DNA from: Candidatus Omnitrophota bacterium
Lineage (GTDB): Bacteria > Omnitrophota > Gorgyraeia > Gygaellales > Profunditerraquicolaceae
Assembly (NCBI GenBank): GCA_022710715.1
Contig: JAKLGJ010000004.1
Location: 320,166 to 384,165 of the forward strand
Reading direction: 5' to 3'
DNA length: 64,000 nt
Part shown: piece by piece, positions 10,768 to 53,155 of the stretch
How the letters are laid out: each line of letters begins with the position of its first letter
Position numbering within the stretch: position 1 is the first letter of the stretch
Translations under genes and position numbers: made by a program
The notes under the pieces: model-generated
Database searches by the model: none
What the model was told of the DNA's origin: nothing
What the model saw: the letters and a program-made list of their open reading frames with translations, nothing else

Positions 10768-10768
10768 C

Positions 10769-19715: not shown

Positions 19716-19727
19716 AGTTATGCACAG

Positions 19728-19762: not shown

Positions 19763-19792
19763 ATATACTGCAACGAACAGGAGGGGAAAGTA

Positions 19793-20134: not shown

Positions 20135-20143
20135 GAAGGCCGG

Positions 20144-25340: not shown

Positions 25341-25568
25341 GCGCGACTCCGCTTAATCTGTATTTTACTTTACTCTTGAAATGTACTCCCGTCAACAACA
25401 AAAACCCGGTTTGAAACCGTTTTCAGGATACCCCCGCCGGAGTCTTTAATTCGCCCTCTATATAAGGTATACTTATAGCGGTTGGTAACCACACACTCTT
25501 TCTATCCCTTCAATAGAGAGAGCTATTTTTTTAATCACAATCTAAACATTTTCAAAAAGCCGGAGCGT

Positions 25569-36100: not shown

Positions 36101-36957
36101 AAGCCGAAGAAGCAATCCAGGCGCTCAAAGCGCTCTATGCCCAGCAGTCTAAGGAGCTCGCCAAGCTCCCGCAGGCCAAGCCCCTGCCGGCAGCGGCCCC
36201 GGCGGTTCCGCCTGCCGCCCCGCAACCCGTCGGCGCAGCCAGGCCCGCGGCGCAATCCGCGAATGTGCGTATCCCGGGCATGGGCAAGATCGTTACCGGC
36301 CTGTCCCAGGAAATTCTCAACCCCTTATCCGCGGTGTTGAATAACGTCAAGCTGGTCAAGATCAAATTGATGCAGGAAGCCGGTCCCAAGAATACCGAGC
36401 TGAAGAATTCCATCGATCTGATCGAGGATAACGCGCTGCTGTGCAAGAATATCCTTTATTCGCTTTCCGATCCCACGCGCGCCGTGCAGGCCTCATTCAA
36501 GAGCCTCTCGCTTAACGACACTATCGCCAAAGTGGAAACCCTGTTCGGTTATGAGCTGAAGCTGCAGAACATTTCCCTGCAGAAACAACTGCAGGCGAAC
36601 CTGCCGGATGTCAGCGGCGACCCGCTGCTTCTGATGCAGGTTGTCTTCAATATCATCGCCAACGCCAAATGGGCGATCAAGAACAATCCCTATGTCAGCG
36701 CAGGCACCATCCACATCGTCACCCAGGCCACCCAGAACGACGAAGTGGAGGTCATCATTACCGATAACGGCATCGGGATATCCCCGGAGCATATGTCGCA
36801 TCTCTACGAACCGTTCTTTACCACCAAGACCGACGGGCTGGGATTAGGCCTGGCAGTCGCCCGGAACATCATGCAGGAGCACAAAGGCACGATCGAAATA
36901 GTCAGCAAAGACGGCAAAGGCGCCACCGTCACCCTGCGCTTCCCCACAGCGAAATAA
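33172..36957 (+). CDS. PAS - extended coiled-coil repeat - histidine-kinase-like protein (H-box His replaced by Gln)
   Basis: N-terminal 2 TM plus a PAS-like segment ('ILIDGSGKIIEANDNILALLGHTQEQLAGSEI'). About 900 aa of ~38-residue repeats follow ('ERKRLE..VRQEEQKKAQEQI.ALE..HA.EL..KIAE'). C-terminal HisKA-like 'LSQEILNPLSAV' and an intact HATPase_c ('NIIANAKWAI', 'DNGIGI', 'GLGLGLAVAR'). Confidence 0.75.
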   Translation: MSGIKIDRNTLLIAALGPALWLLDGLLMSVLFKENLLRQLFLPKGPDFIVNLLLFFLPGALAVVFTRDSGETPPSPPKPAFDLTKGNAILIDGSGKIIEANDNILALLGHTQEQLAGSEITQICGKTDPQKVFAFIAEVLEHKDGILDNIAVFGKSKVMRADIRGRLIKNFRRDIPQAILLELAPRLPAAAAQVPAAQAPAAQAGSVTPAAQPQPAVSPQPQHPSLKDIIAAIVPAQPQQASSSQSQSPQSPSPQPPQQQESPAKFDQERRKIEDAVRTQEQKKAQEQIQALEQKHAREMVERMTQERKRMEVAFQEQARKLLEEERKRLEDSIRRQEQNAAQEKIRALESRQAQELSVRLANERKRLELALREEEQLTTTRIEDSLKKKFEQQLRAQLDEDRKHWEATTRQLEKTLEQQMERQVRLRVEDERKRLEQSVRHEEQKKAQEQVQAVTKHFSEELNQKLTEERKRLEPIIRGEEQKKAEESLRTLENRHVQSLGVKIAEERRRTEEAARKEELKKLQETEAFLARQHETETRQRLEEERLRVEAEIRGQERARAEEQLALLKTRHAEELALRIEEEKSRVEAQVRQQERQAAQEQIFVLKNQQAQELWVKIAEERKRLEDTVRTEERKRAQDVVRLEEQSKAQEQIRLLENKFAVELGQKIAEARKQIEEAVRQEEIKKAQENLRQINTEHAEETWRKLNEERARAEEATRRQEEEKHLRLLEELKATYARDLAAKLEQERKRIEETVRQETEHALQERVRNLEQTQAREFTAQMAEERRRLEQLIRQEEQKKRETLEAMLKKQYVDELQQQLAEERRKAQESLRQQEGQTFRQQLQEVDQKYAQDLNAKLSLERQKFADQHALLEVQIRQQEQQKLQQQIIDLENKHAAYMAGRIAEERKQVEAAVRQEERKKTEETIQALKALYAQEAKAAQAQQTPQPAPVAAPAIISAEQRKQIEETVRQEERKKAEEAIQALKALYAQQSKELAKLPQAKPLPAAAPAVPPAAPQPVGAARPAAQSANVRIPGMGKIVTGLSQEILNPLSAVLNNVKLVKIKLMQEAGPKNTELKNSIDLIEDNALLCKNILYSLSDPTRAVQASFKSLSLNDTIAKVETLFGYELKLQNISLQKQLQANLPDVSGDPLLLMQVVFNIIANAKWAIKNNPYVSAGTIHIVTQATQNDEVEVIITDNGIGISPEHMSHLYEPFFTTKTDGLGLGLAVARNIMQEHKGTIEIVSKDGKGATVTLRFPTAK
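33970..36145. repeat. degenerate ~114-bp tandem coding repeats (about 20 copies) encoding the coiled-coil units
   Basis: Periodic recurrence of gag/gaa-cgc-aag-cgy-ctg-gaa ... cag-gaa-gag-cag-aag-aaa-gcc-cag-gag-cag. Confidence 0.7.
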
Positions 36958-36989: not shown

Positions 36990-37177
36990 AAAAGGCCATA
37001 AATACTACAATATGATACACTGCGCCCGTGGCTTAGCGAGGCTTGTGCAGGCGGGTATTTGCAGAATAGCGGTAGAAGTAGAAAGCCGAGCGTATCCTGT
37101 ACGATGCAAGGAGATCCCGAAGGGATCGACGCAGCGGTTATCGTACAGGACAACTGGATAGATAGAGTGCAATTTTT
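36990..37177 (+). pseudogene. disrupted tRNA-Arg 5' fragment with ~150-nt structured insert
   Basis: GCGCCCGTGGCT (acceptor/D-stem of the downstream tRNA-Arg) at about 37013, then about 150 nt including CCTGTACGAT...ATCGTACAGG and GATCCCgaagGGATC hairpins, then CAACTGGATAGATAGAGTGC (D-loop-like), AATTTTT, and the intact tRNA. Confidence 0.4.
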
Positions 37178-37251
37178 GCGCCCGTGGCTCAACTGGATAG
37201 AGCACTAGCCTACGGAGCTGGTTGTTGGTGGTTCGAATCCACCCGGGCGCA
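37178..37251 (+). tRNA. tRNA-Arg (anticodon ACG)
   Basis: Hand-folded cloverleaf: acceptor GCGCCCG/CGGGCGC, D-arm GCTC-AACTGGATA-GAGC, anticodon stem CTAGC/GCTGG with loop CT-ACG-GA, T-arm GGTGG-TTCGAAT-CCACC, discriminator A. Confidence 0.85.
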
Positions 37252-37297
37252 TTAAATTTCCCCGAAGACCCGGTCATGCGATCGGGTTTTCAAGCAT

Positions 37298-37768
37298 ATG
37301 GCGATGAAAAAACTCGACGAATTGTTCATGGCGCAGGCGATCAAAGAAGCAGCCAAGGCTTTTGAGAAGGATGAGGTGCCGGTGGGTTGCGTGATCGTGC
37401 ACAAAGGCAAAGTGATCGCCAAAGGCCACAATCAGGTGGAGATGCTCAAAGATCCCACCGCGCACGCCGAGATGCTGGCTTTGACTTCCGCCGCCAACGC
37501 GCTGGGCTCAAAGTGGTTGAACGGCGCTTCGATCTATGTTACAATTGAACCTTGTAGCATGTGCGCCGGGGCGTTAGTGCTCGCCCGGATCAAAGAGATC
37601 GTTTTCGGCGCTCCGGACCCCAAAACCGGCGCCTGCGGTTCGGTATTCGACATCGCCAACTGTAAAAAGCTGAATCACCGCATCCAGGTGCGCTCCGGCG
37701 TGCTGGAAGCGGACTGCGCGCTGCTGTTGAAAGAGTTCTTCCGCAAGAAACGCGCGAAAGAGAATTAA
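37298..37768 (+). CDS. tadA: tRNA-specific adenosine(34) deaminase
   Basis: 'HAEMLAL' and 'PCSMCAGAL' are the CDA zinc-ligand motifs (H-A-E, PCxxC). 156 aa. Confidence 0.85.
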   Translation: MAMKKLDELFMAQAIKEAAKAFEKDEVPVGCVIVHKGKVIAKGHNQVEMLKDPTAHAEMLALTSAANALGSKWLNGASIYVTIEPCSMCAGALVLARIKEIVFGAPDPKTGACGSVFDIANCKKLNHRIQVRSGVLEADCALLLKEFFRKKRAKEN

Positions 37769-37795: not shown

Positions 37796-37884
37796 GGAGA
37801 GGTGGCAGAGTGGTCGAATGCAACTCACTGCTAATGAGTTATCTGGGGAAACCTGGATCCTGGGTTCAAATCCCAGCCTCTCCG
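37796..37884 (+). tRNA. tRNA-Ser (anticodon GCT)
   Basis: Acceptor GGAGAGG/CCTCTCC, anticodon stem AACTCA/TGAGTT with loop CT-GCT-AA, long variable arm, T-arm CTGGG-TTCAAAT-CCCAG, discriminator G. Confidence 0.85.
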
Positions 37885-37897
37885 AAATTGCAACCCA

Positions 37898-37950
37898 TTC
37901 GAACCTTTGCGCTCATCGTCTAAGAGCGCGATGGTTCGAATTTTGCTTTT
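37898..37950 (+). terminator. rho-independent terminator after tRNA-Ser
   Basis: TTCGAACCTTTGCGCTC ... GAGCGCGATGGTTCGAA hairpin followed by TTTTGCTTTT. Confidence 0.55.
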
Positions 37951-38064
37951 AGCCACGCAGCAAGGCTTAAAATCCCGCTCATTTCCTTCAAGAAGCTGGT
38001 AAAAGTCAGCTTCCTTCGTTAAGCAGTCTGCAATGCTCGTCGAGATTTCGAAATGGGAGGATAA

Positions 38065-38391
38065 ATGACAGCAAACAAATTTACTGCCAACGCGTCGGCC
38101 CTTTCGGATTTACTGAATTATCAGACTGATTCGATTGTTAGTCAAGAGATCGTGAAGAAAAGCTCCGGCACGGTAACGTTATTCGCTTTTGACAAAGGAC
38201 AGGGTTTAAGCGAGCATACCGCTCCTTTTGACGCTCTGGTTTATATCGTTGACGGGAAAGTTGAAATTACGATCTCCGGCAAACCCTTGATCGTTAAAAA
38301 AGGCGAAATCATCATTATGCCTGCGAATAAGCCTCATGCCTTGAAAGCGGTGCAGAAATTCAAGATGCTTTTGGTTATGATGAAAAGGTGA
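38065..38391 (+). CDS. cupin domain protein
   Basis: 108 aa. '[27 protein letters not shown]...[14 protein letters not shown]' is a cupin two-motif beta-barrel pattern. Confidence 0.65.
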
Positions 38392-38395
38392 AGAG

Positions 38396-38749
38396 ATGAT
38401 AAAAACAAAAAGAATTTACAACGGTCCCGCAAGAGGCGATGGTTTGAGAATCCTTGTGGACAGGCTCTGGCCGCGAGGCATAAGCAAAGAGGAGGCGAAA
38501 ATCGACCTCTGGCTCAAAGACATTGCCCCCAGCGACGGCCTAAGAAAATGGTTTGCGCATGACCCGGCAAAATGGTCTGTATTTAAAGAAAAGTACTTTT
38601 CTGAGCTCGGCAATAAAAAAGCTCTCATTGGCGAAATTATGAAGAAAGCGAAAGGCGACGTGACACTGTTGTATGCCGCCAAAGACGAACAGCATAATAA
38701 CGCGCAGGCGTTAAAAGAATATATTGAAAACAAGGAGGTGGTATCATGA
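38396..38749 (+). CDS. DUF488 family protein
   Basis: 'IKTKRIY..P...[18 protein letters not shown]...W.K..APS..LR.WF' matches DUF488 (YeaO-like). Confidence 0.65.
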
Positions 38750-39336
38750 AGAGCAGAAAGATAAATAAATTTTTCTTGTTTCTGCTTAGCGCAGCGGCTG
38801 TCTTGTCTATTGGAAGGGGTGAACTGTTTGCGCACTGCGACACTTTGGATGGCCCTGTGATTCAGGATGCACGAACAGCTTTAGAGAAGGGTGATGTTAC
38901 GCCGGCGCTCAAATGGGTCAAAAAAGACGCTGAGCCGCAGATCCGCGCTGTCTTCGATAAGACGATCGCCGAGCGCAAGTCAAATAAAGATGCCGCTGAT
39001 ATGAAATTCTTTGAGACGCTGGTGCGTATTCATCGCGCAGGAGAAGGCGCGTCTTTCACCGGCCTTAAGCCAGGCGGTTCTGTCGAGACTATTGTCGCCG
39101 GAGCGGATAAAGCATTGGAAACCGGCTCCCTTGATGCTTTGACTCAAGAAATGGCAACGCATCTTACAAGTGGCGTTAAGAAACGCTTCGAGCGTGCGTT
39201 TGCATTGAGGAAGCATAAAGACGAAAGCGTTGAGGCCGGACGTGAATATGTGGAGGCTTATGTCGAATACGTGCATTACGTGGAAGGATTGCACGATATG
39301 ATAGGGGGCAAGGGTAGCCATAATCACGAAGAATAG
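38746..39336 (+). CDS. hypothetical secreted protein (DUF6448-like)
   Basis: Signal peptide, then '[15 protein letters not shown]' and a helical remainder. Confidence 0.4.
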
Positions 39337-39376
39337 CGCCTGCTTATTCGTAAAAAATAAAATTTCGGGAGATTCT

Positions 39377-39757
39377 ATGAGCGGAGGGAAAATACTCAAG
39401 AGAAGAATTCAGGAGTATTTTTTCAAAGAAGAACGTATTATATTCCATGTTTTTCGCGGTATTTTTCGAAGCTTGATCCTTATCCTCAGTTTTTTGATGA
39501 TAGGGATATTCCTTTTCATGAAAACAGAAAAACTTGGTTTCCATGATTCTTTATACGAGACCGCGATGATCATGACGGGCATGGGGCCAGCTATCGAATT
39601 GCAAACAAATAGCGGAAAAATCTTTGCGTCTATTTTTGCTATGGTATCGGTAGGGGTGGTTATTTCTTCAATCACTTTTGTCTTCGGCCCTATTTATAGA
39701 CGATGGCATAAGAAAATGCATATTGAAATCCAGCAAAAGACAGGCGGTAAAGAATAA
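39377..39757 (+). CDS. two-TM ion-channel-like protein (pore-loop 'TGMGP')
   Basis: TM1 - pore helix 'YETAMIMTGMGP' - TM2 architecture. No K-selective TVGYG filter. Confidence 0.4.
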   Translation: MSGGKILKRRIQEYFFKEERIIFHVFRGIFRSLILILSFLMIGIFLFMKTEKLGFHDSLYETAMIMTGMGPAIELQTNSGKIFASIFAMVSVGVVISSITFVFGPIYRRWHKKMHIEIQQKTGGKE

Positions 39758-39766
39758 TCGAGGTTT

Positions 39767-40441
39767 ATGCAAATGCGCATACTATTAGTAGAGGATGAAA
39801 TAAGAATGGCCAGTTTTATTGTGCGCGGCCTGAGAGAAGAGGATTACGTGGTTGACGTGGCCAATGACGGAGAAAAGGCTTTATTCCAGGCCGAAATTAA
39901 TCCGTATGATCTTATAATCCTTGATATTATGCTGCCGGTTAAAGACGGCATTACTGTCTGTCGGGAACTCCGGAGCAAGAAGATAAACGTTCCTATCTTG
40001 ATGCTTACATCCAAAGACAGGGTGCGAGATAAGGTTTTAGGCTTGAATTCAGGCGCCGATGATTATCTGGCTAAACCATTTGCTTTTGAGGAGCTGATAG
40101 CCAGAATTAGCGCCTTATTACGGCGGGATAAAACAGATAAAACCGGTATTATTAAAGTCGCAGACTTAGAGCTGGATCAGCTCAGGCATGCAGTTACGCG
40201 GGCCGGGAATGAAATCCAGCTAACCAGCAAAGAGTTTGCCCTTTTGGAATACCTTATGCTTAATGCCACTCACGTCGTTACCAGGACAATGATTTCAGAA
40301 CACGTATGGCATGAAGATTTCGACAGTTTGACGAACGTCATTGATGTTTATATGAATTTCTTGCGCAATAAGATCGATAAAGGGCACAAAAAACGGCTTA
40401 TCCATACCATCCACGGCAAAGGGTATGTTTTAAAGGAATAA
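39767..40441 (+). CDS. OmpR-family response regulator (CusR/CopR-like)
   Basis: Receiver ('LLVEDE', 'LIILDIMLP') plus winged-helix trans_reg_C. Close paralog of 52483..53151. Confidence 0.85.
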
Positions 40442-40443
40442 CT

Positions 40444-41472
40444 ATGCTCGCCCAAACAATCAAATCAAAGGTTTGCATACTATACGCCTCTCTATTAGGC
40501 GTCGTGTTGTCTCTCTATGTCGGTCTGCTGCTTTTTATGCCCGCGGATTTATTGCAGAGGAATAAGCTGTTTTATATATTGATCCCTATCCCCCTGACGT
40601 TATTATTCGGTTATTTTATCGGGCATGTGATTATAACAAGAATTCTAAAGCCGATTAAAAAGATGACCGACACAGTAAAAAATATTACTCATGAAGATTT
40701 GAGTCTAAGAGTTCAGGCAGAAAACGTGGATGAGGAGTTGAGACGTTTGATCGAAGCTTTTAACGATATGGTTTCGCGGCTGGGGGAGTCATTCGAGTAT
40801 ATTACAGACTCAAGTTCGTATATCGCCCATGAGCTTAAAACCCCGATAGCCATCATCAGGGGGGAGTCGGAATTCGCATTAAAAAAAGAACGGGAGAAGG
40901 AAGAATACCAGAGAGTCATCAGCGTGAGTTTGGAAGAAACCAAGAGAATGCTTAAAATTATCGAGGATTTATTGTTTTTGACCAAAATGAATTACCAACC
41001 CGATGTTTTGAAATTCGAGCAGATTGATCTGACGCAGTTTATCCGTATAATTTACGAACAGGCAAAGATGCTGGCATCCAAAAAGAACATAACGGTCAAC
41101 ATAAATATCCCCGAAGAACCCGGTATGGTTAATGCGGATGATCTGCACCTGCGGCGCTTATTCTTTAACTTAATAGATAATGCAATAAAATTTACCCCCG
41201 CAAGCGGCAGTATAACGATAAATTTACGATATGAAGATCAAAAGGGAGCAGTTTCTATTATTGATTCGGGAATCGGGATTGAGGAAGAGAACATGCCGAA
41301 GCTTTTTGATAAGTTTTTCCGCATCGACGGAACGATTAAAGACACTTCTCCCAGCAGTGGATTAGGTTTAAGCATCGCCCAATCGATAGCCCAGTTGCAT
41401 AAGGGCAATATTTCGGTAACGAGCCGCGTTGGGCAAGGAACAAACTTTACCGTATCCCTCCCCGTTTTATAA
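40444..41472 (+). CDS. sensor histidine kinase (CusS-like)
   Basis: Two TM helices, a HAMP-like region, H-box 'AHELKTPIAII', N-box 'NLIDNAIKFT', 'DSGIGI' and 'GLGLSIA'. Confidence 0.85.
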   Translation: MLAQTIKSKVCILYASLLGVVLSLYVGLLLFMPADLLQRNKLFYILIPIPLTLLFGYFIGHVIITRILKPIKKMTDTVKNITHEDLSLRVQAENVDEELRRLIEAFNDMVSRLGESFEYITDSSSYIAHELKTPIAIIRGESEFALKKEREKEEYQRVISVSLEETKRMLKIIEDLLFLTKMNYQPDVLKFEQIDLTQFIRIIYEQAKMLASKKNITVNINIPEEPGMVNADDLHLRRLFFNLIDNAIKFTPASGSITINLRYEDQKGAVSIIDSGIGIEEENMPKLFDKFFRIDGTIKDTSPSSGLGLSIAQSIAQLHKGNISVTSRVGQGTNFTVSLPVL

Positions 41473-41662
41473 TCAACACATCTCCGCTCAGATTCTTTCC
41501 AGCTATCCAATCATTAAAAATTTTAATTCCTTTTTAACACTTCTTTAATCGCGAGTATGTTATATTGTCTGCCGATGAGGGAAAAAAATTACGGGTGGCT
41601 GCGGAGATCTGTTAAGCAGTGGAAGTTCACTCTGCAGCCGCCCGCAGAATTAAGGAGCGACA

Positions 41663-42391
41663 ATGACAAGAATACTTATTATTGAAGACGAAGAGAAGGT
41701 GAGAAGAATGTATAGCACGATGTTTAAGAACGAAGGGTTTGACGTCATTGAAGCGCCCGATGCGATTCAGGCGTCCTGTATACTCAACAAAGAGTACATA
41801 GATATGATCCTGCTTGATATAAAAATGCCGCAAGTTTATGGCAGCGTGTTTTACGATATTATGAAAATTTCTCACAAAAAGGTTAAAGTCATTGTGGCGA
41901 GCGTTTATTCCATCGAAGAGCAGAAAAAAATGATTCAGGGCGCCGATGATTATTATGATAAAGCGCATGGCCTTGATTTATTGCTGGAAAAAGTCAAGAA
42001 GGTGGAGCGGGGCATAAAACAACAGACGAGCATACTGGTTATTGATGATGAGCCCCGGATCAGGAAGATTTACCGCCATTATTTGCAAGAAAACGGATAT
42101 CGCATCATTGAGGCTCATGATGGCAACGACGGTTTAGATATATTAAGGAAGAGCAATGAAATCGCTTTGGTAATTCTTGATCTTGCCATGCCTCAAAAAA
42201 GCGGGTTCGAGATTCACGAACAGATGAAAAAAGAATTCCCGGGCATAAAGATATTGATCGCCAGCGTTTTTAACCAAAATGACCAGAAATTCCTGCTTCC
42301 CAACGCGGATGATTATTACGATAAATCAGAAGATGCGTCCAGGATGATCCAGAAGATCGAAAAGCTGATACATACAGATTGTCCCGCATGA
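41663..42391 (+). CDS. tandem double-receiver (REC-REC) response regulator without output domain
   Basis: Two receiver domains: 'ILIIEDEE...ILLDIKMP' and 'ILVIDDEP...VILDLAMP'. Confidence 0.75.
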   Translation: MTRILIIEDEEKVRRMYSTMFKNEGFDVIEAPDAIQASCILNKEYIDMILLDIKMPQVYGSVFYDIMKISHKKVKVIVASVYSIEEQKKMIQGADDYYDKAHGLDLLLEKVKKVERGIKQQTSILVIDDEPRIRKIYRHYLQENGYRIIEAHDGNDGLDILRKSNEIALVILDLAMPQKSGFEIHEQMKKEFPGIKILIASVFNQNDQKFLLPNADDYYDKSEDASRMIQKIEKLIHTDCPA

Positions 42392-42442
42392 CGAACAATT
42401 GCCCATGGAGGCAAAACGCCAGGGGGACAAAGGAGGTCAATT

Positions 42443-42637
42443 ATGTGCCCTTATTTCAATTATTCAAAATGCCAGAGTCTGTGTCTCTGCTATCCCGGGA
42501 GCCTGTTCTGTCCGAGTATCCAAAGACGGAAAGATTTTTGTTATAACAAATTCTGGGATTGCACGTATTTTAAGATAGAGACATCAGCAACCATTGAACC
42601 GGCTCAAGGCGAAGATTGTTTGCCTGTATTCGAATAA
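42443..42637 (+). CDS. small Cys-rich protein, MCP[YF]F family (copy A)
   Basis: 64 aa 'MCPYF...CQSLCLCYPGSLFCP...RKDFCYNKFWDCTYF'. AAAGGAGG RBS. Paralog of 43248..43439. Confidence 0.5.
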   Translation: MCPYFNYSKCQSLCLCYPGSLFCPSIQRRKDFCYNKFWDCTYFKIETSATIEPAQGEDCLPVFE

Positions 42638-42697
42638 TCCCGAGCGGTCTAATACATCTTTTTGCAGCCATATAATTATTTAAAGGAGTGATTTCCT

Positions 42698-43234
42698 GTG
42701 CAGTTATATATACCTCAAAACATTTTTGTTCAAATAACGATTCCTCTCTTGATCTTTCTTGCCCGGGCAGCGGATGTAAGCATGGCGGCAATGAGGATTA
42801 TTTTTGTTACTCGCGGCATAAGGGCGCTGGCCGCCATGATAGGTTTTTTTGAAATGTTGATTTGGCTTATAGGCATCACTCAAATAATGCAGAATTTAAA
42901 CAACCCTGTTAATTATTTAGCCTTTGCGGCCGGGTTCAGTATGGGAACTTTCGTCGGCATCACCATAGAGAGAAAAATTGCCATTGGCAATCTGGCGATC
43001 CAGCTCATTACGGGCAAGGATACATCCGGATTATTGACATATTTCCGCGCTAACGGATACGGCGCAACTGCTATTGATGCGCAGGGGACTTCCGGCCCGG
43101 TCAAGATTATTTATATCATCGTCAGGCGCAAGTTGGTGGACAAGGCGCTGGATATAATAACAAAATTTGATCCGGATGCTTTCTATATTATGGGAGACGT
43201 TCAGGTGGCAGCTCGTCTTGGCCCGGCAATCTGA
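42698..43234 (+). CDS. DUF2179 domain membrane protein (UPF0316/YitT C-terminal-like)
   Basis: Three or four TM helices followed by a PII-fold-like DUF2179 segment 'GATAIDAQGTSG..KIIYIIVRRKLVDKALDIITKFDPDAFYIMGDV'. Confidence 0.5.
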   Translation: MQLYIPQNIFVQITIPLLIFLARAADVSMAAMRIIFVTRGIRALAAMIGFFEMLIWLIGITQIMQNLNNPVNYLAFAAGFSMGTFVGITIERKIAIGNLAIQLITGKDTSGLLTYFRANGYGATAIDAQGTSGPVKIIYIIVRRKLVDKALDIITKFDPDAFYIMGDVQVAARLGPAI

Positions 43235-43247
43235 GAGGGAATGAACA

Positions 43248-43439
43248 ATGTGCCCTTTTTTTATTACAATACGACCAATCGGCCATTGCGGCTGTTATGG
43301 AGACGGTTCATTTCATCCGAACGCCAAACGTAAAAAGAAGTACTGCGCCGGGAAATTCAGGGACTGCTTATTCTATCAATGGGAAATGAAGCCGATTATT
43401 ATCCAATCGGCGCCGGGGTTGAAAAGTAATGAGATATGA
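43248..43439 (+). CDS. small Cys-rich protein, MCP[YF]F family (copy B)
   Basis: 63 aa 'MCPFF...HCGCYGDGSFHP...RKKKYCAGKFRDCLFY'. GAGGG RBS. Confidence 0.5.
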   Translation: MCPFFITIRPIGHCGCYGDGSFHPNAKRKKKYCAGKFRDCLFYQWEMKPIIIQSAPGLKSNEI

Positions 43440-44107
43440 ACATTTTAGTCTGGTTATCGCGCAATTATGGGATTGATATGAAAAACATTCCAATAGCGGA
43501 TATTGAGAGAGAGCTTGAGAAATTTACCTGTGATTTGCTGAGAATATGCCGTTTAACGCAGGAGGCGATCAACAAAACATCCTGTGTCCTTCTGTGTTCT
43601 GACGTCTTCAAGATGCAGGAGATTATAGATCACAGCAAAAGAATAGGGGCTCTGTGTGTTGCTTTCGAGGAATATCTTGACGATATCTTGACATGGTATC
43701 GGCCCGAGGGCAGCGTTTTGAAACTCATCTCTTCAAGCATAAACGTTATTATTGAATTAAAGCAAATTGCGGACTTGACTGTGGGTATTGCGGAAAGCTT
43801 ATTAAATTTTAATGCAGATATCCCTGAGAGGTATAAGATCAATATCGCTCAATGCGCTAAAAATTATAAAAATATTGTCTGGGATTCCACCATCTCCTTT
43901 TTAAGACAGGACGCGGAGTTAGCGAAGAAGACTATCGTAGCAAGCCTGGAGCTGAAAAAGATATGCAGCCGCATGCAGGAAGGCGTCATAGAAGCGAATA
44001 AAACAGTTGAATCGGCGAAAAGAGACGAATCTATTGTATTGTTTATTATCCAGAGCGTAGGAGATATTTCCGATCATGCAGTCGCTATCGCCCGATCCGT
44101 TATCTGA
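43436..44107 (+). CDS. PhoU-domain protein
   Basis: Two repeated helical PhoU-like halves with Asp/Glu-rich motifs. Start could instead be the internal ATG at 43478. Confidence 0.45.
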   Translation: MNILVWLSRNYGIDMKNIPIADIERELEKFTCDLLRICRLTQEAINKTSCVLLCSDVFKMQEIIDHSKRIGALCVAFEEYLDDILTWYRPEGSVLKLISSSINVIIELKQIADLTVGIAESLLNFNADIPERYKINIAQCAKNYKNIVWDSTISFLRQDAELAKKTIVASLELKKICSRMQEGVIEANKTVESAKRDESIVLFIIQSVGDISDHAVAIARSVI

Positions 44108-44136
44108 ATATAAACCGAAGAAATCAAGGAGCAGAA

Positions 44137-44655
44137 ATGAAAGATAAAAAAATTTATATCACGCGATCGGATTTCTACCGTCTCCGTGAAACGATCAAAG
44201 CTATGAAGTCCAGCCGGGAGATTGACAGGAGGTCTCTTGATGAACTGGAACACAGCTTTAACTCGCGGAATGAATTGAGATTGCTTCAAGAAGTAAGGAG
44301 GATAAACAGCTCAAAAAACGACGCGGAATGGGCGCCGATTATAGAGCTTGAAGCCGAATTGGACAGGGCAATCATCGTTGATGCCGATAAAATCCCTTCC
44401 GGTGTTATTACGATGAACTCGAAGGTCTGTCTTAAGGATATGGACACGGGGAAGGACGAATTCTATCAACTGGTATATCCCGAAGACGCGGATATTGAGC
44501 AAAACAAAATCTCCGTTTTAGCTCCTATCGGCACGGCGATACTGGGATATAAGGTGGGAGATGTAATCGAATGGAAGGTCCCGGCAGGCTTACGGAGGCT
44601 TAAAATTAAGAAAATATTGTATCAACCTGAAACAGCCAGAGATTATTATCTCTAA
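44137..44655 (+). CDS. GreA/GreB-family regulator (Rnk-like)
   Basis: C-terminal FKBP-like Gre domain 'ISVLAPIGTAILGYKVGDVIEWKVPAG' and an N-terminal coiled-coil. Confidence 0.65.
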   Translation: MKDKKIYITRSDFYRLRETIKAMKSSREIDRRSLDELEHSFNSRNELRLLQEVRRINSSKNDAEWAPIIELEAELDRAIIVDADKIPSGVITMNSKVCLKDMDTGKDEFYQLVYPEDADIEQNKISVLAPIGTAILGYKVGDVIEWKVPAGLRRLKIKKILYQPETARDYYL

Positions 44656-44668
44656 CGAGAGGTCAAGG

Positions 44669-44962
44669 ATGTTCAAACTGATAATGGCTATACTTCCGAA
44701 AGGGAAAATTAAGGCAGTAATGCCGGTTCTTAAAGACGCCGGTATTTTTGGCGCTACCATGTTTCCCGGAAAAGGGATGTGTACGGCAGAGGGCCGACGC
44801 GCGCTCGGCTTGCGTATTAACTCATCGAGAGAAATCCTGATGCTGCTCACCCTGGATCGCAATAAAGATAAGCTCATCACATTGCTGGAACACCACGGCA
44901 CATTAAAAGATCCGGGCCAGGGTATTGTTTTTGTGATGGATATCAGTCAAGTTATCGGATAA
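44669..44962 (+). CDS. P-II family protein (short, divergent)
   Basis: 'LIMAILPKGKIKAVMPVLKDAGIFGATMFPGKGMCTAEG' and C-terminal 'GQGIVFVMDISQVIG' parallel the GlnB T-loop and C-terminal regions. Confidence 0.5.
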   Translation: MFKLIMAILPKGKIKAVMPVLKDAGIFGATMFPGKGMCTAEGRRALGLRINSSREILMLLTLDRNKDKLITLLEHHGTLKDPGQGIVFVMDISQVIG

Positions 44963-44977
44963 ACGTAAGGAGGAGCC

Positions 44978-45439
44978 ATGGCAATAAACGTGTTTGTGAG
45001 TTTTAACCAGACTGATCTGAAGCAATGCGAAGCCTTCAATGTCCTTAAAGATCAATCAAAGCATGCATTTGAGGCTTGCGATCATAGTTTAAAAGAAATA
45101 TCAACTGACGGGATCGAGCAATTGATACAGTGCCGGCTGAATGAGGGCCGTTCAAAAGCATTACGGGAAGAGATTATCAAGAAATTTGAGCAGTGTGCCA
45201 AATTAGTCGTTTTAATCGGAAACGAGACTTTTAAGAATGAATGGGTGGAGTGGGAGGTAAATAATTTTTATAAAATGAAAAACGCGCTTTTGCCGGGGAA
45301 AGCGTGGATGAGTATTCGCGGCATGTTCCTTGAGGGTTGCGAAAAAGCAACAGAGCCGAAGGCCCTGGAATGCAGATCGACAAATGGCCTGGTATGGGAC
45401 CCCGAGGCTTTAGAGAAATGGATAGAAGCAGGATCCTGA
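44978..45439 (+). CDS. TIR-like domain protein (DUF1863 / ThsB-like)
   Basis: 'AINVFVSFNQTD' (compare VFISFxxxD) and 'CAKLVVLIGNETFKNEWVEWEV' (compare CDGVIVLLSKNTWKSxWVxWEI) match the MTH538/ThsB TIR-like pattern. 153 aa. Confidence 0.5.
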   Translation: MAINVFVSFNQTDLKQCEAFNVLKDQSKHAFEACDHSLKEISTDGIEQLIQCRLNEGRSKALREEIIKKFEQCAKLVVLIGNETFKNEWVEWEVNNFYKMKNALLPGKAWMSIRGMFLEGCEKATEPKALECRSTNGLVWDPEALEKWIEAGS

Positions 45440-45493
45440 GACGCTTTCCCCTGGACAAAATTTTTTGCAGGCAAGTAGACCCACCGTAAGCCA

Positions 45494-45528
45494 AAAGGCG
45501 GCTACTTTTTAAGTAGCCGCCTTTTCCG
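45494..45528. terminator. strong bidirectional rho-independent terminator
   Basis: AAAAGGCGGCTACTTtttAAGTAGCCGCCTTTT perfect hairpin with flanking A/T runs. Confidence 0.8.
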
Positions 45529-45686
45529 TTTCACATGAAATACCCTTGCGACTCATCCGCCCAGGTGTTATAATTATCTCATATTAAGGAGTTGGAGGAT
45601 GAGCAGGTCAGAATGGATTCGATAACCTGGAGGTGGCTTTTTGTCTCCGGGTTTTTTGTTTGACAATCACATTTAATAGGAGACGC

Positions 45687-46088
45687 ATGTTAAGATTTGA
45701 ATATGACCCGGATAAGATTTTCACTAGAATTATAAGCCTTGCATGTGAGATGGCAATCGATTGCATTCCTGATTACGACGATGACGATTTCGAATGTTTC
45801 TTCCCTCTTGCATCTAAATGTCTATCGAAGGACATGGTGAGGAAAACACTGAAAGAATTGAAGAAAAAGAATGAAGATTCCCATCTCTGGGTATTGAACG
45901 ATTATCATTATAGTCTGCTATATGACTTGTTGAGGGCGTTTTGCGGTGTCCAGAATGATATAGCTAAAGAATCTAATGAGCCTATCTTGAAAATCGACGG
46001 ATCAAAAATATATGAGATCGATTTTGATGAAATAGTCGAGCATTACTTCTATGATCTGGATTTCCTTTTGCCTAAAAAATATTCTTAA
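45687..46088 (+). CDS. hypothetical protein
   Basis: 133 aa, acidic ('DYDDDDFECFF'). TAGGAGA RBS. Confidence 0.35.
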   Translation: MLRFEYDPDKIFTRIISLACEMAIDCIPDYDDDDFECFFPLASKCLSKDMVRKTLKELKKKNEDSHLWVLNDYHYSLLYDLLRAFCGVQNDIAKESNEPILKIDGSKIYEIDFDEIVEHYFYDLDFLLPKKYS

Positions 46089-46090
46089 AT

Positions 46091-46273
46091 ATGACTGAAG
46101 AGCATAAAGAACAAATGGGTTTCGCTGAAGGGACCTTCGGAGTGATCATAGGATTGAAAGCGCATCCTGATGAGCTTAAGATGGAACTGTTCGATAGGAA
46201 AAAACACATTCCCGGCGCGCCCGACAATTCTTTATATGAAAAAGGTTCGGAAATATATCCCGGTCCAGTGTAA
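46091..46273 (+). CDS. small hypothetical protein
   Basis: 60-aa ORF immediately downstream of the preceding gene. Confidence 0.25.
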   Translation: MTEEHKEQMGFAEGTFGVIIGLKAHPDELKMELFDRKKHIPGAPDNSLYEKGSEIYPGPV

Positions 46274-46335
46274 TATGGCGGGGATCTGCCGCAAGGATCC
46301 TGCGATCCGCGTTGTTGTATTAAGGAGGATGCGAT

Positions 46336-46998
46336 ATGAGTTTCGCCGGAGATTGGTTGAAGAAAGAAAACGAGGCGTATGTCAGCTCGATTGCCGGGCT
46401 TCTGGCGGCGCTGGTTTTCACTGCGGATAAAAAGGCATATATCTGTCAGCAGCCGTTCGATTTCAACGTTTCGCTGGTGCTGTTTGTTTTCGTCGCGCTC
46501 CTGCGGTTGAAAGTCCATGTTTGTGAAACGCGGCTGGAGGGGTTTTCCCGGAGGCTGACTGTTGAGAATCTGGGAAAACTTGGGATGGCTCGGCTTACTG
46601 TCCGGGGGGATATATATCTATTTGCTCTCACGTTATTAAGCCTGGCAGTGATGCATGTTTATTTATTCCTGCCGGCGATGATGTTTTTTGTGATTACGGA
46701 TATCATCAGCTGTGCTGTCTCCTTGAAATATCTGGAGAAAATCGGCACGGATTGGGCAGAAGGCGTGTTCGATCCGTATCGATTATTCAGAGGTTGGATC
46801 GCTTTAGGTGTTATCAATGTGATTGGAATTATTCTGCTGGTGATAATGTCTTTATTTTTTGTCGCGGACATCAGGGTCGCTTTGGTCGAGTACTTTGCCT
46901 TTTGGCTCACGGGACTGGACATATTCGCGGACTTGATGATTGGCAGAGATTTTTATTTCAATTATTATTACCATGCCGAAGCAGAGCCCAAGCATTAA
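46336..46998 (+). CDS. hypothetical polytopic membrane protein
   Basis: 220 aa with about 5 hydrophobic helices. AGGAGG RBS. Confidence 0.45.
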   Translation: MSFAGDWLKKENEAYVSSIAGLLAALVFTADKKAYICQQPFDFNVSLVLFVFVALLRLKVHVCETRLEGFSRRLTVENLGKLGMARLTVRGDIYLFALTLLSLAVMHVYLFLPAMMFFVITDIISCAVSLKYLEKIGTDWAEGVFDPYRLFRGWIALGVINVIGIILLVIMSLFFVADIRVALVEYFAFWLTGLDIFADLMIGRDFYFNYYYHAEAEPKH

Positions 46999-47881
46999 AA
47001 TAGTCGATCTGGTAGAAGTGTGTCGGCAGGACCGGCATAAGTTCGAGCGTCTGTTTAAACAAGCGCAGAAGATTTATCATGCATCTTTCCGTTCTGAAGA
47101 GAAGGAGAGCACTGCGTGCATCCGCAGGTTCATCTGGGACGCGGCACGGGATTCCGGGGATGGCAGCGGCTATCGTTTCTGCTATCTGATTCCTCTTCTG
47201 GGCAAGCGTGTTGGCGGGATGTTTATGTTCGAAATGATCCCTCTGCCGGGTAAGAGCCTTATGGCTTTTTTAGGGTATATCGCTGTTGACCGGTCTCTTC
47301 GCGGAATGGGGATTGCCAAAAGGCTCATCCAGGAGTTTCGGCGGTTTTTTTTAGCGCAAGCGAAGCAATACAAATTGAAACCTTTGGGTGGTTTCGGCGA
47401 GGTGGAAAAACCGGATCTGTCCGTAGCTGACGATTTGAGGAATAAAATTCGTCCGGGATTCCATCATAATGTCTGCAATTTCGGGGTGATGACGGTATTG
47501 ACAGCGGGAAATCGTTTTAAGATCCTGCCGTATTTTCAGCCGGGTATTTCCCGGAATAGGGGCGCGATCGAACCGCCGGTGCCGTTTTTGCCCTGTATCA
47601 TGAGGGTTTTCGGGAAAACATTCCGAAAATTGCCGGTGGGGGCGGGGAAGGTGGTTGATCACGCGGGTCAATTGAAACTCCCGATAAAAAGCTTACCTGT
47701 CATGAATAGCGCTGTTGCTTTGCAAATGATCCACGGAGTGTATAATTCTTACCGGGAAGGCGCGGAATACAGCAAGAACCAGATAGATAAACTTGAAGAC
47801 AATATTCGGCGTAATCTGGAGGGGTATCGTAAAGTATATATTGTGCCTATCCCGGATACAGCTTACATTCCTTTGAAATAG
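46973..47881 (+). CDS. GNAT family N-acetyltransferase (extended C-terminus)
   Basis: 'FLGYIAVDRSLRGMGIAKRLIQEF' is GNAT motif A (acetyl-CoA binding R/QxxGxG/A). Start is uncertain. Confidence 0.5.
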   Translation: MPKQSPSIKIVDLVEVCRQDRHKFERLFKQAQKIYHASFRSEEKESTACIRRFIWDAARDSGDGSGYRFCYLIPLLGKRVGGMFMFEMIPLPGKSLMAFLGYIAVDRSLRGMGIAKRLIQEFRRFFLAQAKQYKLKPLGGFGEVEKPDLSVADDLRNKIRPGFHHNVCNFGVMTVLTAGNRFKILPYFQPGISRNRGAIEPPVPFLPCIMRVFGKTFRKLPVGAGKVVDHAGQLKLPIKSLPVMNSAVALQMIHGVYNSYREGAEYSKNQIDKLEDNIRRNLEGYRKVYIVPIPDTAYIPLK

Positions 47882-47943: not shown

Positions 47944-49266
47944 CTACTCGACTATACCCCAGGGGGCGGGTTCGGATTTCTGCATGTTCTGGTGATGTCT
48001 TTTCCAGAACTCGCACCACCAGTGCGGCGGCTGGATCTTGTCGCCGGTGTATTCCGTAGGCCTGCGGGTTTCTCCGCCGCATACCAGGCTGCCTACGTAA
48101 TCCGCCTGCGCATAGACTTTCTCGATCTGCTGGGATATCTCGCGCATGTCTTGGTCTGATACCACGCCGTTGGAGGTGGCTTTGTAGAATTGCACGGTCA
48201 CCCGGATGGGGAAGGCCGGGTCGCGTTCGATCGCCAGGTGGTCGATCTCGGTGAAGGGGCCTTCGACTTTTCCGTGGCCGATGACCGCGTTTTCCACGTC
48301 GCTTTTGGATTCGGCGCATTTTTCTTTCATCATCCCGAGGCTGTCATATGCGGCCGGATATTCCGCGTAGAGATGCCGCATGGGTTTTCTTTGTTTCAGC
48401 GGGACCTGGATCAGAAGCACCATGTTCAATCCGGCTTTTTCGTCAGCGGCAGCGCTGCGGCGAATGGTCTGCGGATCTGCGCGGAAATCGCTGATCCTCT
48501 GTCCGGTGAGGCTGGCCCGTTCGCCGTTCTGATTGAAGAAAAGCCGCTGTCCCCAGCTGCGGCCCGCCTGGAATGCGTCGCGGGTGTTGTCGATCACGGT
48601 CACGCTGGTGCCTTCGCGGGTGGCGACGATGGTCAGCACCGCCGGGTCGCCCTGGGTGGACTGGTAGTTGAAGAGCACCGGGTTGAATTCGGCTATCCCG
48701 TCTTCAGGGATAGGCAGGAAGCAGGCCTGCGCGCTTACCAGAGCGTGCGAGTCGCGGGGAGCCAGCAGGGAGGTGCGATTGCCTTTCCAGGAACCCGGCT
48801 CGCTTAAATAAGAGCGGATATCGCCTAAGAATTCTTTCAAAGTAACGCGTTTCAAGTTCCGGCCTTTTTCATTTCCCACCAGGATATAGAATTTATCCAG
48901 AGGCACGTCTCCGGTTTTGTCCGAGAAATTCGCGTAACGGATCACCGGCATGCAGAAAAGGTCATAATTGCCGGTGCGGGGATCCTGGCGCTGCACCTGT
49001 ATGGTCATATCGCTGATGTTCGGGCCTACGCTTGAGCCTTTGTATCTGCCGGTATCTTCCCAGGTCAGGTCCAGGATGGAAAGCCCGTATCTGCGCGCCA
49101 GCTCCCGGGCTAATGGCTGATGCACCATGCCCACGGTTTCCTGAATGACTGTTCTATACGGATCGTATCCGCAATCGATCTCGCGGCTGTAGCCTGCCGC
49201 AGGCAGGAGAACGATTTCCAGGACCCAACACACCGCTAACAGTACCCGCATGACCTTTGTATCCAT
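47944..49266 (-). CDS. hypothetical secreted protein
   Basis: Signal peptide 'MRVLLAVCWVLEIVLLPAAGYS'. AAGGAGG RBS on the minus strand upstream of the ATG at 49266. Confidence 0.5.
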   Translation of the reverse strand: MDTKVMRVLLAVCWVLEIVLLPAAGYSREIDCGYDPYRTVIQETVGMVHQPLARELARRYGLSILDLTWEDTGRYKGSSVGPNISDMTIQVQRQDPRTGNYDLFCMPVIRYANFSDKTGDVPLDKFYILVGNEKGRNLKRVTLKEFLGDIRSYLSEPGSWKGNRTSLLAPRDSHALVSAQACFLPIPEDGIAEFNPVLFNYQSTQGDPAVLTIVATREGTSVTVIDNTRDAFQAGRSWGQRLFFNQNGERASLTGQRISDFRADPQTIRRSAAADEKAGLNMVLLIQVPLKQRKPMRHLYAEYPAAYDSLGMMKEKCAESKSDVENAVIGHGKVEGPFTEIDHLAIERDPAFPIRVTVQFYKATSNGVVSDQDMREISQQIEKVYAQADYVGSLVCGGETRRPTEYTGDKIQPPHWWCEFWKRHHQNMQKSEPAPWGIVE

Positions 49267-49491
49267 GTTGCCTCCTTGTGTAGAGACACAACACCGGCGC
49301 AATTCCGATTTGCGCCGGGTGTATCTTGTTATGGTTGATTTTCCCTTCTCACTTCTTTAGACAGGAAAAAGGGGATTTTGTTCCCAAAATCTTTTGCGCT
49401 TTAATTGGCTTGAGTTTTCCCGGGCGTGTACTATCATATAGGAAGAATATCTTCAATTATCCGGGAACTTTCAGCCTTAAAACTTGTCTAA

Positions 49492-53151: not shown

Positions 53152-53155
53152 TTTC

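Follow-up and report, generated by a model that had tools for sequence, protein, structure and literature searches.

The locus and its genes

We describe here a block of genes in a window of 64,000 nucleotides (nt), that is, the whole stretch of DNA from contig JAKLGJ010000004.1 of a Candidatus Omnitrophota bacterium that was analysed; all positions below are those of this window. The block starts just behind the 3' end of a tRNA-Ser(GCT) gene at about 38 kb, all of its genes are on the + strand, and it is richer in AT than the DNA around it. An earlier, sequence-only reading had proposed that it is a likely acquired island without an integrase. The order that this reading gave for the left flank (tRNA-Arg, tadA, tRNA-Ser) is the one on which ARAGORN, Rfam and Pfam agree, and the cupin gene, the TIR-like gene and a second pair of response regulator (RR) and histidine kinase (HK) genes that it reported are all present by Pfam. 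There is indeed an open reading frame (ORF) where it saw a hypothetical gene after the TIR-like gene, but this is really a frameshifted pseudogene.

In the list below, GC3 is the GC content at third codon positions, dN and dS are nonsynonymous and synonymous divergence, aa stands for amino acids and TM for transmembrane. RR_i and HK_i are the pair in the block, RR_c and HK_c the pair resident elsewhere in the window, and L numbers are our handles for loci fetched from other genomes.

37,177-37,252, + strand: tRNA-Arg(ACG), host left flank (ARAGORN; Rfam tRNA, 63 bits)
37,298-37,768, + strand: tadA, tRNA adenosine(34) deaminase (Pfam MafB19-deam and dCMP_cyt_deam_1; host-type GC3 of 0.73)
37,796-37,884, + strand: tRNA-Ser(GCT), the point up to which the ancestral gene order is kept (ARAGORN, Rfam)
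37,897-37,941, + strand: strong hairpin and T-run that probably terminate the tRNA/tadA unit (fold -30.3 kcal/mol, z = -7.05)
38,065-38,391, + strand: Cupin_2 protein of 108 aa, the first island gene (Pfam PF07883; 80% aa identity to L089; GC3 0.51)
38,396-38,749, + strand: DUF488 protein of 117 aa (Pfam PF22752/PF04343; 83-85% aa identity to L092 and L099)
38,746-39,336, + strand: DUF6448 protein of 196 aa (Pfam; 87% aa and 89% nt identity to L092; dS 0.36)
39,377-39,757, + strand: membrane ORF of 126 aa with two TM helices (GC 0.38, the lowest in the core; an insertion relative to L099)
39,767-40,441, + strand: OmpR-family response regulator RR_i (Pfam; dS 0.68-0.89, dN/dS 0.05)
40,444-41,472, + strand: histidine kinase HK_i of 342 aa (Pfam HAMP, HisKA, HATPase; 80-93% identity to low-GC homologues)
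41,663-42,391, + strand: stand-alone REC-REC protein of 242 aa (Pfam Response_reg in two stretches; 80-90% identity to homologues)
42,443-42,637, + strand: small Cys-rich ORF of ~64 aa, starting MCPYF (tblastn, 74% identity to ORFs of L096 and L099)
42,698-43,234, + strand: UPF0316 membrane protein of 178 aa (Pfam DUF5698 and DUF2179; 85-89% identity to homologues)
43,248-43,400, + strand, ends approximate: second small Cys-rich ORF (tblastn, 35-37% identity, E ~1e-9, to the small ORF of L096/L099)
43,436-44,107, + strand: PhoU-domain protein of 223 aa (Pfam PhoU in two stretches; below the NCBIfam PhoU cut-off)
44,137-44,655, + strand: Rnk-like protein of 172 aa with a GreA/GreB C-terminal domain (Pfam)
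44,669-44,962, + strand: P-II-like protein of 97 aa (Pfam P-II, E = 4.5e-7; 87% aa identity to L099 and L100)
44,978-45,439, + strand: TIR-like protein (ThsB_TIR) of 153 aa (Pfam PF08937, E = 1.8e-11; 73-81% identity to the homologues that end the cluster elsewhere)
45,493-45,525, no strand given: perfect 15-bp inverted repeat with A- and T-run flanks, a terminator ending the core (fold -25.5 kcal/mol, z = -7.6)
45,687-46,264, + strand: frameshifted pseudogene of an uncharacterised family of ~195 aa (two-frame tblastn; GC 0.38)
46,336-46,998, + strand: multi-TM orphan protein of 220 aa (GC3 0.56)
46,940-47,881, + strand: GNAT-domain orphan of 302-313 aa depending on the start (Pfam Acetyltransf_1, 23.9 bits, cut-off 20.7; GC3 0.54)
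47,944-49,302, - strand: gene of 452 aa, convergent with the block and the first host-type gene on the right (GC3 0.71), marking the right boundary
52,483-54,643, + strand: resident RR_c (222 aa) and HK_c (495 aa, with a periplasmic domain) (Pfam; GC3 0.68 and 0.73)

Some of these genes need a further word. In L099 the DUF6448 gene is followed after ~40 bp by the RR gene, whereas in the window the 126-aa ORF stands between the two; this ORF has no homologue in any fetched locus, and its match to Ion_trans_2 is sub-threshold (E = 0.03). Elsewhere the gene directly upstream of the RR gene, where there is one, usually encodes a Na+/H+ exchanger of 482-517 aa with a TrkA_C domain. The UPF0316 protein scores 207 bits against NCBIfam NF003191 (cut-off 179), and the Rnk-like protein 123.5 bits against NF004396, "nucleoside diphosphate kinase regulator" (cut-off 109). 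The order Rnk, P-II, TIR is identical in L099 and L100.

The two small Cys-rich ORFs are paralogous (MCPYF/MCPFF...CxCY...FC..KF.DC.YF), one preceding the UPF0316 gene and the other the PhoU-like gene, and both are missed or under-called by gene callers. Homologues of the one at 42,443 also exist in L089, L092, L097, L100 and L102, and it is kept in all aligned copies of the cluster described below.

The pseudogene is read in two frames: one of them, to 46,076, matches the N-terminal ~130 residues of the family, the other, from 46,079, the C-terminal ~60. The frameshift falls at a run of six A residues (46,074-46,079), where one added A restores the frame. Since this run is the same in every independent assembly, the pseudogene is probably real rather than a sequencing error. 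Its family, which is without a Pfam domain, has 181 members at E <= 0.001 and 59 at E <= 1e-10. The 220-aa membrane protein that follows has no Pfam or PADLOC match and no homologue in any fetched locus, and a word-indexed search of 5.8 billion proteins with the GNAT-domain protein returned that protein alone. With Rfam at E <= 0.1 we found nothing but the two tRNAs and spurious antisense matches, hence no regulatory RNA in the block.

Composition and extent of the block

The block differs from its surroundings in every measure of composition that we applied, "host" in these tests being the other 54 kb of the window only. The GC content of 37,885-46,300 is 0.430, compared with 0.548 for the remainder of the window, and the sliding GC profile has a single deep and sustained trough in the 64 kb, from ~37.9 to ~47.5 kb. 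Codon usage is shifted to A/T-ending codons, as had been claimed: GC3 is 0.40-0.52 in 13 consecutive + strand genes (38,065-46,088); flanking genes, where the true frame was called, nearly all have 0.62-0.75. Overall, GC3 is ~0.49 in the island and ~0.68 in the host. The tetranucleotide distance between 38,052-45,439 and the remaining window is 1.57 (z = 10.7); 47 host windows of equal size gave 0.52 +/- 0.10, with a maximum of 0.82. Normalised for composition, the tetranucleotide correlation of the core is 0.80, compared with 0.936 +/- 0.025 and a minimum of 0.842 among host windows. The intergenic DNA of the block is deviant too. Profiles of GC, GC3 and tetranucleotides thus all depart significantly from the host background within the window, and an AT-richer block does lie where the sequence-only reading had put it. 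The contrast that it estimated as 40% versus 60% GC exists as well, but its size was overstated, since it is really ~43 versus 55%.

The limits of the block had to be redrawn. The core that has homologues elsewhere is 38,052-45,439, and the whole AT-rich stretch measures 7.5-10 kb. Homology to other genomes begins at 38,052, less than 170 bp beyond the last base of tRNA-Ser(GCT), so that the left junction lies between the hairpin at 37,897-37,941 and 38,052. A start at 37,796 had been proposed earlier; it is right in that the block adjoins tRNA-Ser, but the block proper runs from ~38.0 kb, past the hairpin terminator. The proposed end at ~46.3 kb coincides with neither of the limits seen here: the homologous core stops at 45,439, and deviant to intermediate composition continues to 47,881, GC3 being 0.54-0.56 in the two genes past 46,336.

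A homologous cluster in low-GC Omnitrophota

Look-ups of gene context together with a metagenome scan revealed a colinear cluster in at least 13 Omnitrophota contigs of 37-44% GC. This cluster was defined in the present analysis from the fetched loci and is not a named family. Loci L089, L092, L094-L102 and L104-L106, which carry it, were compared with the window by blastn and tblastn; L089 is the copy in Ca. Velamenicoccus archaeovorus LiM, whose genome is complete (CP019384.1, 1,891,519-1,912,187). Over 38,052-45,439 the window is 75-89% identical to these loci at the nt level, spacers included. Gene order and strand are the same, and each protein is the best match of its counterpart, at 56-93% identity overall and 64-91% to L089. 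The common core consists of (a Na+/H+ exchanger with TrkA_C), RR, HK, REC-REC, Cys-rich ORF, UPF0316, PhoU-like and Rnk-like genes, then (MgtE and small ORFs, or a P-II-like gene) and finally the TIR-like gene, while accessory genes (cupin, DUF488, DUF6448, hemerythrin, rubrerythrin) shuffle around it.

L089 and its counterparts resemble the window copy in GC and GC3 and in the lengths of their proteins (HK 342-344, REC-REC 242, UPF0316 178, PhoU-like 223, Rnk-like 172 and TIR-like 153 aa). The window copy differs from them in being without the Na+/H+ exchanger with TrkA_C, an extra GreA paralogue, MgtE and three small ORFs; it alone has the private 126-aa membrane ORF, and it has the P-II-like gene in common only with L099, L100 and L106. 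Among the cluster loci it is also the sole copy beside a tRNA and the sole copy in a GC-rich genome. No tRNA was found nearby in the 11 cluster loci scanned, and their flanks differ among them.

The neighbours of the cluster vary from one genome to another. In L104-L106 they are housekeeping genes (TsaD, Alr, LptFG, SmpB, Dxs, GltX) with no phage genes nearby. Upstream in L099 (391-3,896) there are a ParB-methyltransferase and a large terminase (PHROG E = 7e-125 and 9e-81); the terminase is directly followed by the Na+/H+ exchanger gene, and the arrangement looks like a truncated prophage. An rve-type transposase is found downstream in L099 (14,301-15,362) and in L100. L090 has a GpJ-like tail protein (1-555), L089 a CI/LexA-like repressor and a methylase (19,381-20,669), and L096 (1,592-4,287) a patatin and SMODS pair, resembling a cyclic-oligonucleotide-based antiphage signalling system (CBASS), and a DUF4062 protein. 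Because phage genes adjoin the cluster in some genomes and not in others, we reject "phage cargo" as a general description. We conclude that the cluster is a chromosomal feature of the low-GC clade and not itself a mobile element, since it has housekeeping settings and the collections of mobile elements, to which we return below, were empty of it.

Divergence and the probable direction of transfer

Synonymous divergence (method NG86) between island genes and their low-GC homologues is 0.36-0.95, that is, unsaturated, while for tadA it is undefined (saturated) or 1.8 and for RR_c it is undefined. The same codon is used at conserved residues in 50-80% of cases for island genes (55-80% against the closest homologue of each gene), in 35-51% for tadA and in 37-39% for the resident RR/HK genes. 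Island HK, REC-REC and RR reach 90-93% identity to low-GC homologues, although histidine kinases normally belong to a fast-evolving class of proteins; TadA does not exceed 82% to anything known. With dN/dS of 0.04-0.27 the island genes are under purifying selection, and hence they are probably in use. The fastest-evolving of them is the PhoU-like gene (56-67% aa identity, dN/dS 0.15-0.27), compared with a dN/dS of 0.05-0.08 for RR, HK, REC-REC and UPF0316.

Composition also has something to say about direction. The tetranucleotide distance from the island to the flanks of the cluster in low-GC Omnitrophota is 0.79-1.26, and from the host to the same non-homologous flanks it is 1.34-2.31. Among substitutions private to the window copy, 137 are AT>GC and 79 GC>AT (ratio 1.73, z ~3.9); six other copies of the cluster have ratios of 0.5-1.7 from far fewer events. 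Island GC3 is equal to or higher than that of the homologue in nearly every comparison. An excess of AT>GC changes is what one would expect if low-GC DNA were now under the GC pressure of the host.

From the RR to the Rnk-like gene three lineages can be recognised: A (L096-L099, 90-93% identical), B (L089 and L092, 93%) and the window itself. The nearest relative changes along the block, being lineage A from RR to UPF0316, lineage B for the PhoU-like gene (dS 0.68, as opposed to 1.89) and the TIR-like gene, and L092 for DUF6448 (dS 0.36). This mosaic suggests recombination among the lineages of the cluster.

The two pairs of two-component genes

The sequence-only reading regarded the RR/HK pair of the block as an AT-ameliorated copy of the CusRS-like pair at 52.5-54.6 kb. 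We disagree with the first part of this statement. RR_i and RR_c are 72% identical, and the two kinases 47% in their cytoplasmic part only, HK_i aligning to HK_c from residue 187 of the latter onwards. RR_i has more than 50 homologues at 88-93% identity, from Omnitrophota wherever the source is named and including Ca. Velamenicoccus archaeovorus, and it nests among Omnitrophota regulators with which it shares 75-93% identity. RR_c, at 68-75% to every one of these, stands outside their clade. Judged by such comparisons, the two pairs are old paralogues, one of which would have been imported, and the resident pair is not its source. On these patterns of identity we also reject a recent duplication of the resident pair.

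The label "CusRS-like" is correct in naming the best-scoring family, but all four proteins fall below the NCBIfam cut-offs for the heavy-metal families. Like CusRS/CopRS, for which both pairs score best, they combine an OmpR-type regulator with a HAMP-HisKA-HATPase kinase. Unlike them, RR_i scores 257.1 and RR_c 265.9 against a cut-off of 279.2 for TIGR01387, and HK_i 252.0 and HK_c 257.1 against one of 292.55 for TIGR01386. Moreover, HK_i is without the periplasmic domain of ~150 aa that HK_c has; its topology, as read from the sequence, is that of two TM helices joined by a loop of ~10 residues. CusS binds its metal in the periplasmic domain, so HK_i would be excluded from sensing metal in the manner of CusS. 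Given the scores and the missing domain, "CusRS-like" denotes resemblance and not membership. Annotators should be warned against taking the island pair for a duplicate of the resident pair or for a metal sensor.

A variable slot behind tRNA-Ser

The module of tRNA-Arg(ACG), tadA and tRNA-Ser(GCT) is present in most of the Omnitrophota loci examined. The order tadA-(tRNA-Ser)-dnaX-recR(-ABC-F) recurs in ~25 fetched loci with 22 distinct arrangements, other phyla included. We note in passing that tadA thereby adjoins the gene for its own substrate, tRNA-Arg(ACG), the wider order across Omnitrophota adding tRNA-Ser(GCT), dnaX, recR and ABC-F, and that tadA...dnaX-recR is also seen in loci of Latescibacterota and Bacillota.

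In the 13 loci with the closest TadA, almost all of them from Omnitrophota, the gap between tRNA-Ser (or tadA if there is no tRNA-Ser) and dnaX ranges from 9 bp to 7.4 kb (9, 93, 159, 286, 358, 439, 720, 2,538, 3,612, 3,931, 5,036, 7,200 and 7,401 bp). Three of the larger gaps were examined for their cargo. One contains a methyltransferase and a trypsin-like protease, another a Mla-type ABC transporter and an ATPase of a type II secretion system, and the third ankyrin, Bro-N and TPR proteins; no integrase was found in any of the three.

None of the genes dnaX, recR and ABC-F is found in the 26 kb that lie downstream in the window. The gene directly upstream of tadA, which encodes an HK domain at its C-terminus, is syntenic in several relatives. 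Since the upstream HK is common to them and the relatives continue to dnaX-recR, synteny breaks exactly at tRNA-Ser, in a slot that is variable across the phylum. As dnaX-recR is not within 26 kb, a rearrangement or a much larger insertion is also involved.

The relatives by which this was judged are not close ones. Among 5.8 billion proteins the closest TadA other than the protein itself is 79-82% identical. On both contigs looked up for their nearest TadA, the genes that come next are dnaX, recR and one for an ABC-F ATPase; L086, the one of the two that was fetched, has 42% GC. The nearest other genomes (TadA 79-80%) have dnaX-recR after tRNA-Ser and no other synteny with the window. A scan of one genome per species gave no genome with a TadA above 75% (one 555-bp fragment reached 81%) and no synteny of the flanks. 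The closest TadA relatives are mostly of 38-49% GC, a few more distant Omnitrophota loci of 51-56%, and the host, at ~55%, is well above most of the former and also above the genomes with the cluster (37-44%). The host lineage itself thus seems to have gone through a marked rise in GC.

A separate observation concerns L086 (TadA 79% identical), in which a 184-aa ORF with a weak match to LAGLIDADG_3 lies between tadA and tRNA-Ser (10,705-11,259; also in L087 and L088). It ends exactly at the start of the tRNA and may be an insertion resembling a homing endonuclease.

Lateral acquisition or vertical descent

Taking these results together, we think that the block was probably acquired laterally within the phylum, from Omnitrophota of lower GC content, and that it has since been partly ameliorated; we hold this view with good confidence. 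Of the proposals in the sequence-only reading, lateral acquisition next to tRNA-Ser without an integrase is the best supported, by the donor-like GC3 and tetranucleotides, the colinear low-GC cluster, the unsaturated dS and the variable slot. The donor would have been a low-GC relative of Ca. Velamenicoccus archaeovorus within Omnitrophota, as yet unsampled. Its DNA would have entered the slot between tRNA-Ser and dnaX-recR by a route that leaves no integrase or repeats, and would have resided there long enough for a drift towards host GC to begin. The right 2.4 kb, with the pseudogene and two orphans, may represent extra flexible DNA that is partly decaying.

Several points weigh against this view, and the reader should have them in one place. 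No integrase, transposase, direct repeat or other scar of an insertion was found. Every contig of the same species is 100% identical and all of them carry the block. We found no near-identical donor: the window is 78-81% identical at the nt level to both lineages A and B, which are themselves 78% apart, and because the three lineages are about equidistant, the distances alone fit vertical descent. The calibration is limited to one housekeeping gene (tadA) and one paralogous pair, other ORFs of the window having no orthologue in the fetched loci. Finally, the tetranucleotide deviation of 45.5-47.9 kb is only ~2.8 standard deviations.

One rival explanation is that the cluster is native. It would have descended vertically from an ancestor shared with Velamenicoccus-like lineages, and some local cause, such as a mutation bias of the region or selection acting on codon use or expression, would have kept it AT-rich when the rest of the genome rose to 55% GC. 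Such an explanation gains from the fact that the cluster is chromosomal and widespread, lying among housekeeping genes in several genomes, from the rough equidistance of the three lineages (78-81% nt) and from genes under purifying selection without mobility genes or insertion scars. We nevertheless consider it quite improbable. It requires that 13 consecutive genes with a GC3 of 0.40-0.52 were shielded from a pressure acting genome-wide; intergenic DNA and tetranucleotides deviate too, and the private AT>GC excess shows that host pressure is acting on the block. Nor does it sit well with synonymous sites that are unsaturated against low-GC homologues when those of tadA and RR_c are saturated, with the broken ancestral order of tadA, tRNA-Ser and dnaX, or with the fact that in other genomes the cluster is never beside a tRNA.

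Mobility signatures and soundness of the assembly

The absence of an integrase, a transposase and a direct repeat of tRNA-Ser had been reported from the sequence, and our domain scans and repeat searches concur. No integrase or transposase domain was detected by Pfam, PADLOC or NCBIfam in the scanned ORFs of >=70 aa at 38.0-47.9 kb, the short spacers not having been profile-searched for degraded remnants. Phage, conjugation, recombinase and replication domains are likewise absent from the block. A search of the entire window for a degenerate copy of the 3' end of tRNA-Ser gave matches at chance level only: there is no copy of the last 22 nt with <=3 mismatches, and matches to the last 15 nt are at chance level. 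An attachment (att) site derived from the tRNA-Ser 3' end was rejected for this reason. A search of 37-50 kb gave no direct repeat that flanks the block. The core DNA has no match in the phage collection, and in the plasmid collection ~100 nt of DUF488 only; a pattern-seeded scan of IMG/VR, which detects close relatives only, gave none for HK, RR and UPF0316. A prophage or plasmid origin was rejected on account of these collections.

It could still be argued that the block is what remains of the cargo of a mobile element (a prophage, a transposon or an integrative element) which came in at tRNA-Ser and whose integrase, att repeats and structural genes were lost afterwards. We regard this as very unlikely, though the block does adjoin a tRNA, ends on the right in a pseudogene and two orphans, and in some low-GC genomes (L099, L100, L090, L089) has relatives with phage or insertion sequence genes beside them. 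Against it, the block has no phage, conjugation or recombinase domain, the 3' end of the tRNA is not duplicated, IMG/VR holds no close relatives and the phage and plasmid collections no meaningful match to core DNA, while the clusters of L104-L106 sit among housekeeping genes with no phage genes nearby. It should be added that this explanation differs from the lateral acquisition that we favour only in the delivery vehicle.

As for the assembly, the exact TadA was found on a 1.62-Mb contig from JGI and on contigs from ENA, Logan and NCBI, which are 100% identical to the window where they cover it. At the left junction, five contigs that differ in sample and assembler have the same sequence. 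Contigs from JGI 3300009776 and GCA_035453765.1 span the right junction, which was traced through an extracytoplasmic function (ECF) sigma factor protein, and are 100% identical to the window there. Because both junctions are identical in independent assemblies, a chimera is unlikely; indeed, that GC-rich and low-GC Omnitrophota populations were joined at a shared sequence such as tRNA-Ser is scarcely credible, even if assemblies can switch at conserved tRNA genes and a low-GC carrier (L091, ERZ27257456) comes from the same sample series as the host (ERZ27257455), given that the left junction recurs in five contigs and the right in three more (including ones of 65 kb and 1.62 Mb), that the k of 141 inferred from k141 contig names exceeds the 89 nt of the tRNA, that in no low-GC genome is the cluster beside tRNA-Ser, and that the private AT>GC bias agrees with a stay in a genome rich in GC.

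Relation to known systems and possible function

Classical tRNA-linked genomic islands, in the sense of the criteria of Hacker and Kaper, are of the pathogenicity-island type and are integrase-mediated. The block is like them in its deviant GC and codon usage, its position directly 3' of a tRNA, its accessory cargo and its decay at one end. It differs from them in that it has neither a recombinase of the tyrosine or serine type nor a duplication of the tRNA 3' end, and neither repeats at its flanks nor genes for conjugation or of phages. Among the marks of a genomic island, we thus find deviant composition, adjacency to a tRNA and a homologous block elsewhere, in other contexts and with donor-like composition; we do not find tRNA-derived att repeats or, in the scans of island ORFs, a mobility gene. 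In our opinion it is most likely a real but ordinary genomic island.

A further comparison is with islands that do without an integrase. The tRNA-associated islands of marine cyanobacteria are flexible slots whose content is exchanged without dedicated recombinases. The slot between tRNA-Ser and dnaX resembles these in its differing cargo and in having no integrase in the gaps examined, but here dnaX-recR is not found across the slot within 26 kb. Some variable loci of Omnitrophota without an integrase or conjugation machinery have also been described, their mechanism being stated as unresolved (bioRxiv 10.64898/2026.06.07.730766); those loci differ from ours in that they were defined by read clipping and carry other cargo.

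One could go further and suppose that the gap between tRNA-Ser(GCT) and dnaX is a phylum-wide insertion hotspot that needs no recombinase, and that the sensory cluster is an exchangeable cassette circulating among Omnitrophota, as the mosaic of nearest relatives along the block might suggest. We consider this unlikely as it stands, but it deserves to be stated: if true, an uncultivated and largely host-dependent phylum would have a repeatedly used entry point for gene flow, with a mechanism not yet described. The papers on Omnitrophota genomics that were consulted contain no mention of this cluster or of the tRNA slot.

Regarding defence, the TIR-like protein is similar to Thoeris in that it matches the ThsB domain (PF08937 E = 1.8e-11; PADLOC ThsB E 5e-6 to 6e-3, weak). 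It differs in that neither ThsA (SIR2, or TM plus SLOG/Macro) nor any other PADLOC component is encoded by the neighbouring genes. In many genomes the TIR-like gene is a constant part of the signalling cluster, standing at its end, and not of a defence island. We rejected a defence-island reading, given weak ThsB matches, no partner, and matches of the REC domains to SduA and similar models that are receiver-domain noise; a defence role for this gene is not supported.

The cargo consists mostly of signalling and regulatory parts. Because a Na+/H+ exchanger with TrkA_C and MgtE bracket the cluster in many other genomes, it probably serves the control of cation homeostasis or of a related envelope or ion stress, as far as gene context can tell. 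The cluster in the window is without both of these bracketing transporters, the exchanger of the cation:proton antiporter (CPA) type (RCK/TrkA_C) and MgtE.

Two further genes of the window may be mentioned here. At 33,172-36,957 there is a histidine kinase of 1,261 aa, whose middle ~800 residues are repetitive, charged and coiled-coil-like, with recurring EERKRLE...VRQEEQKKAQE motifs and an AT skew of up to +0.44 over 34-36 kb. At 25,482-33,011 there is an ORF of 2,509 aa, for which the fetched loci gave no obvious relative except in L025, where one match has 28% identity. Omnitrophota are known for proteins of great length.

Implications

No new kind of element or mechanism is revealed by this block, and its importance is modest, lying mainly in the genome dynamics of Omnitrophota. 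Within these bounds, it would document that genes pass between Omnitrophota of very different base composition, in a phylum that we know almost exclusively through metagenomes. We can name a donor clade, and the partial amelioration gives the transfer a rough date. The slot between tRNA-Ser and dnaX can be flagged as a recurrent variable site in the phylum. Moreover, the block draws attention to an uncharacterised signalling cluster which is strongly conserved in the Velamenicoccus-like clade and which was evidently useful enough to be kept after transfer.

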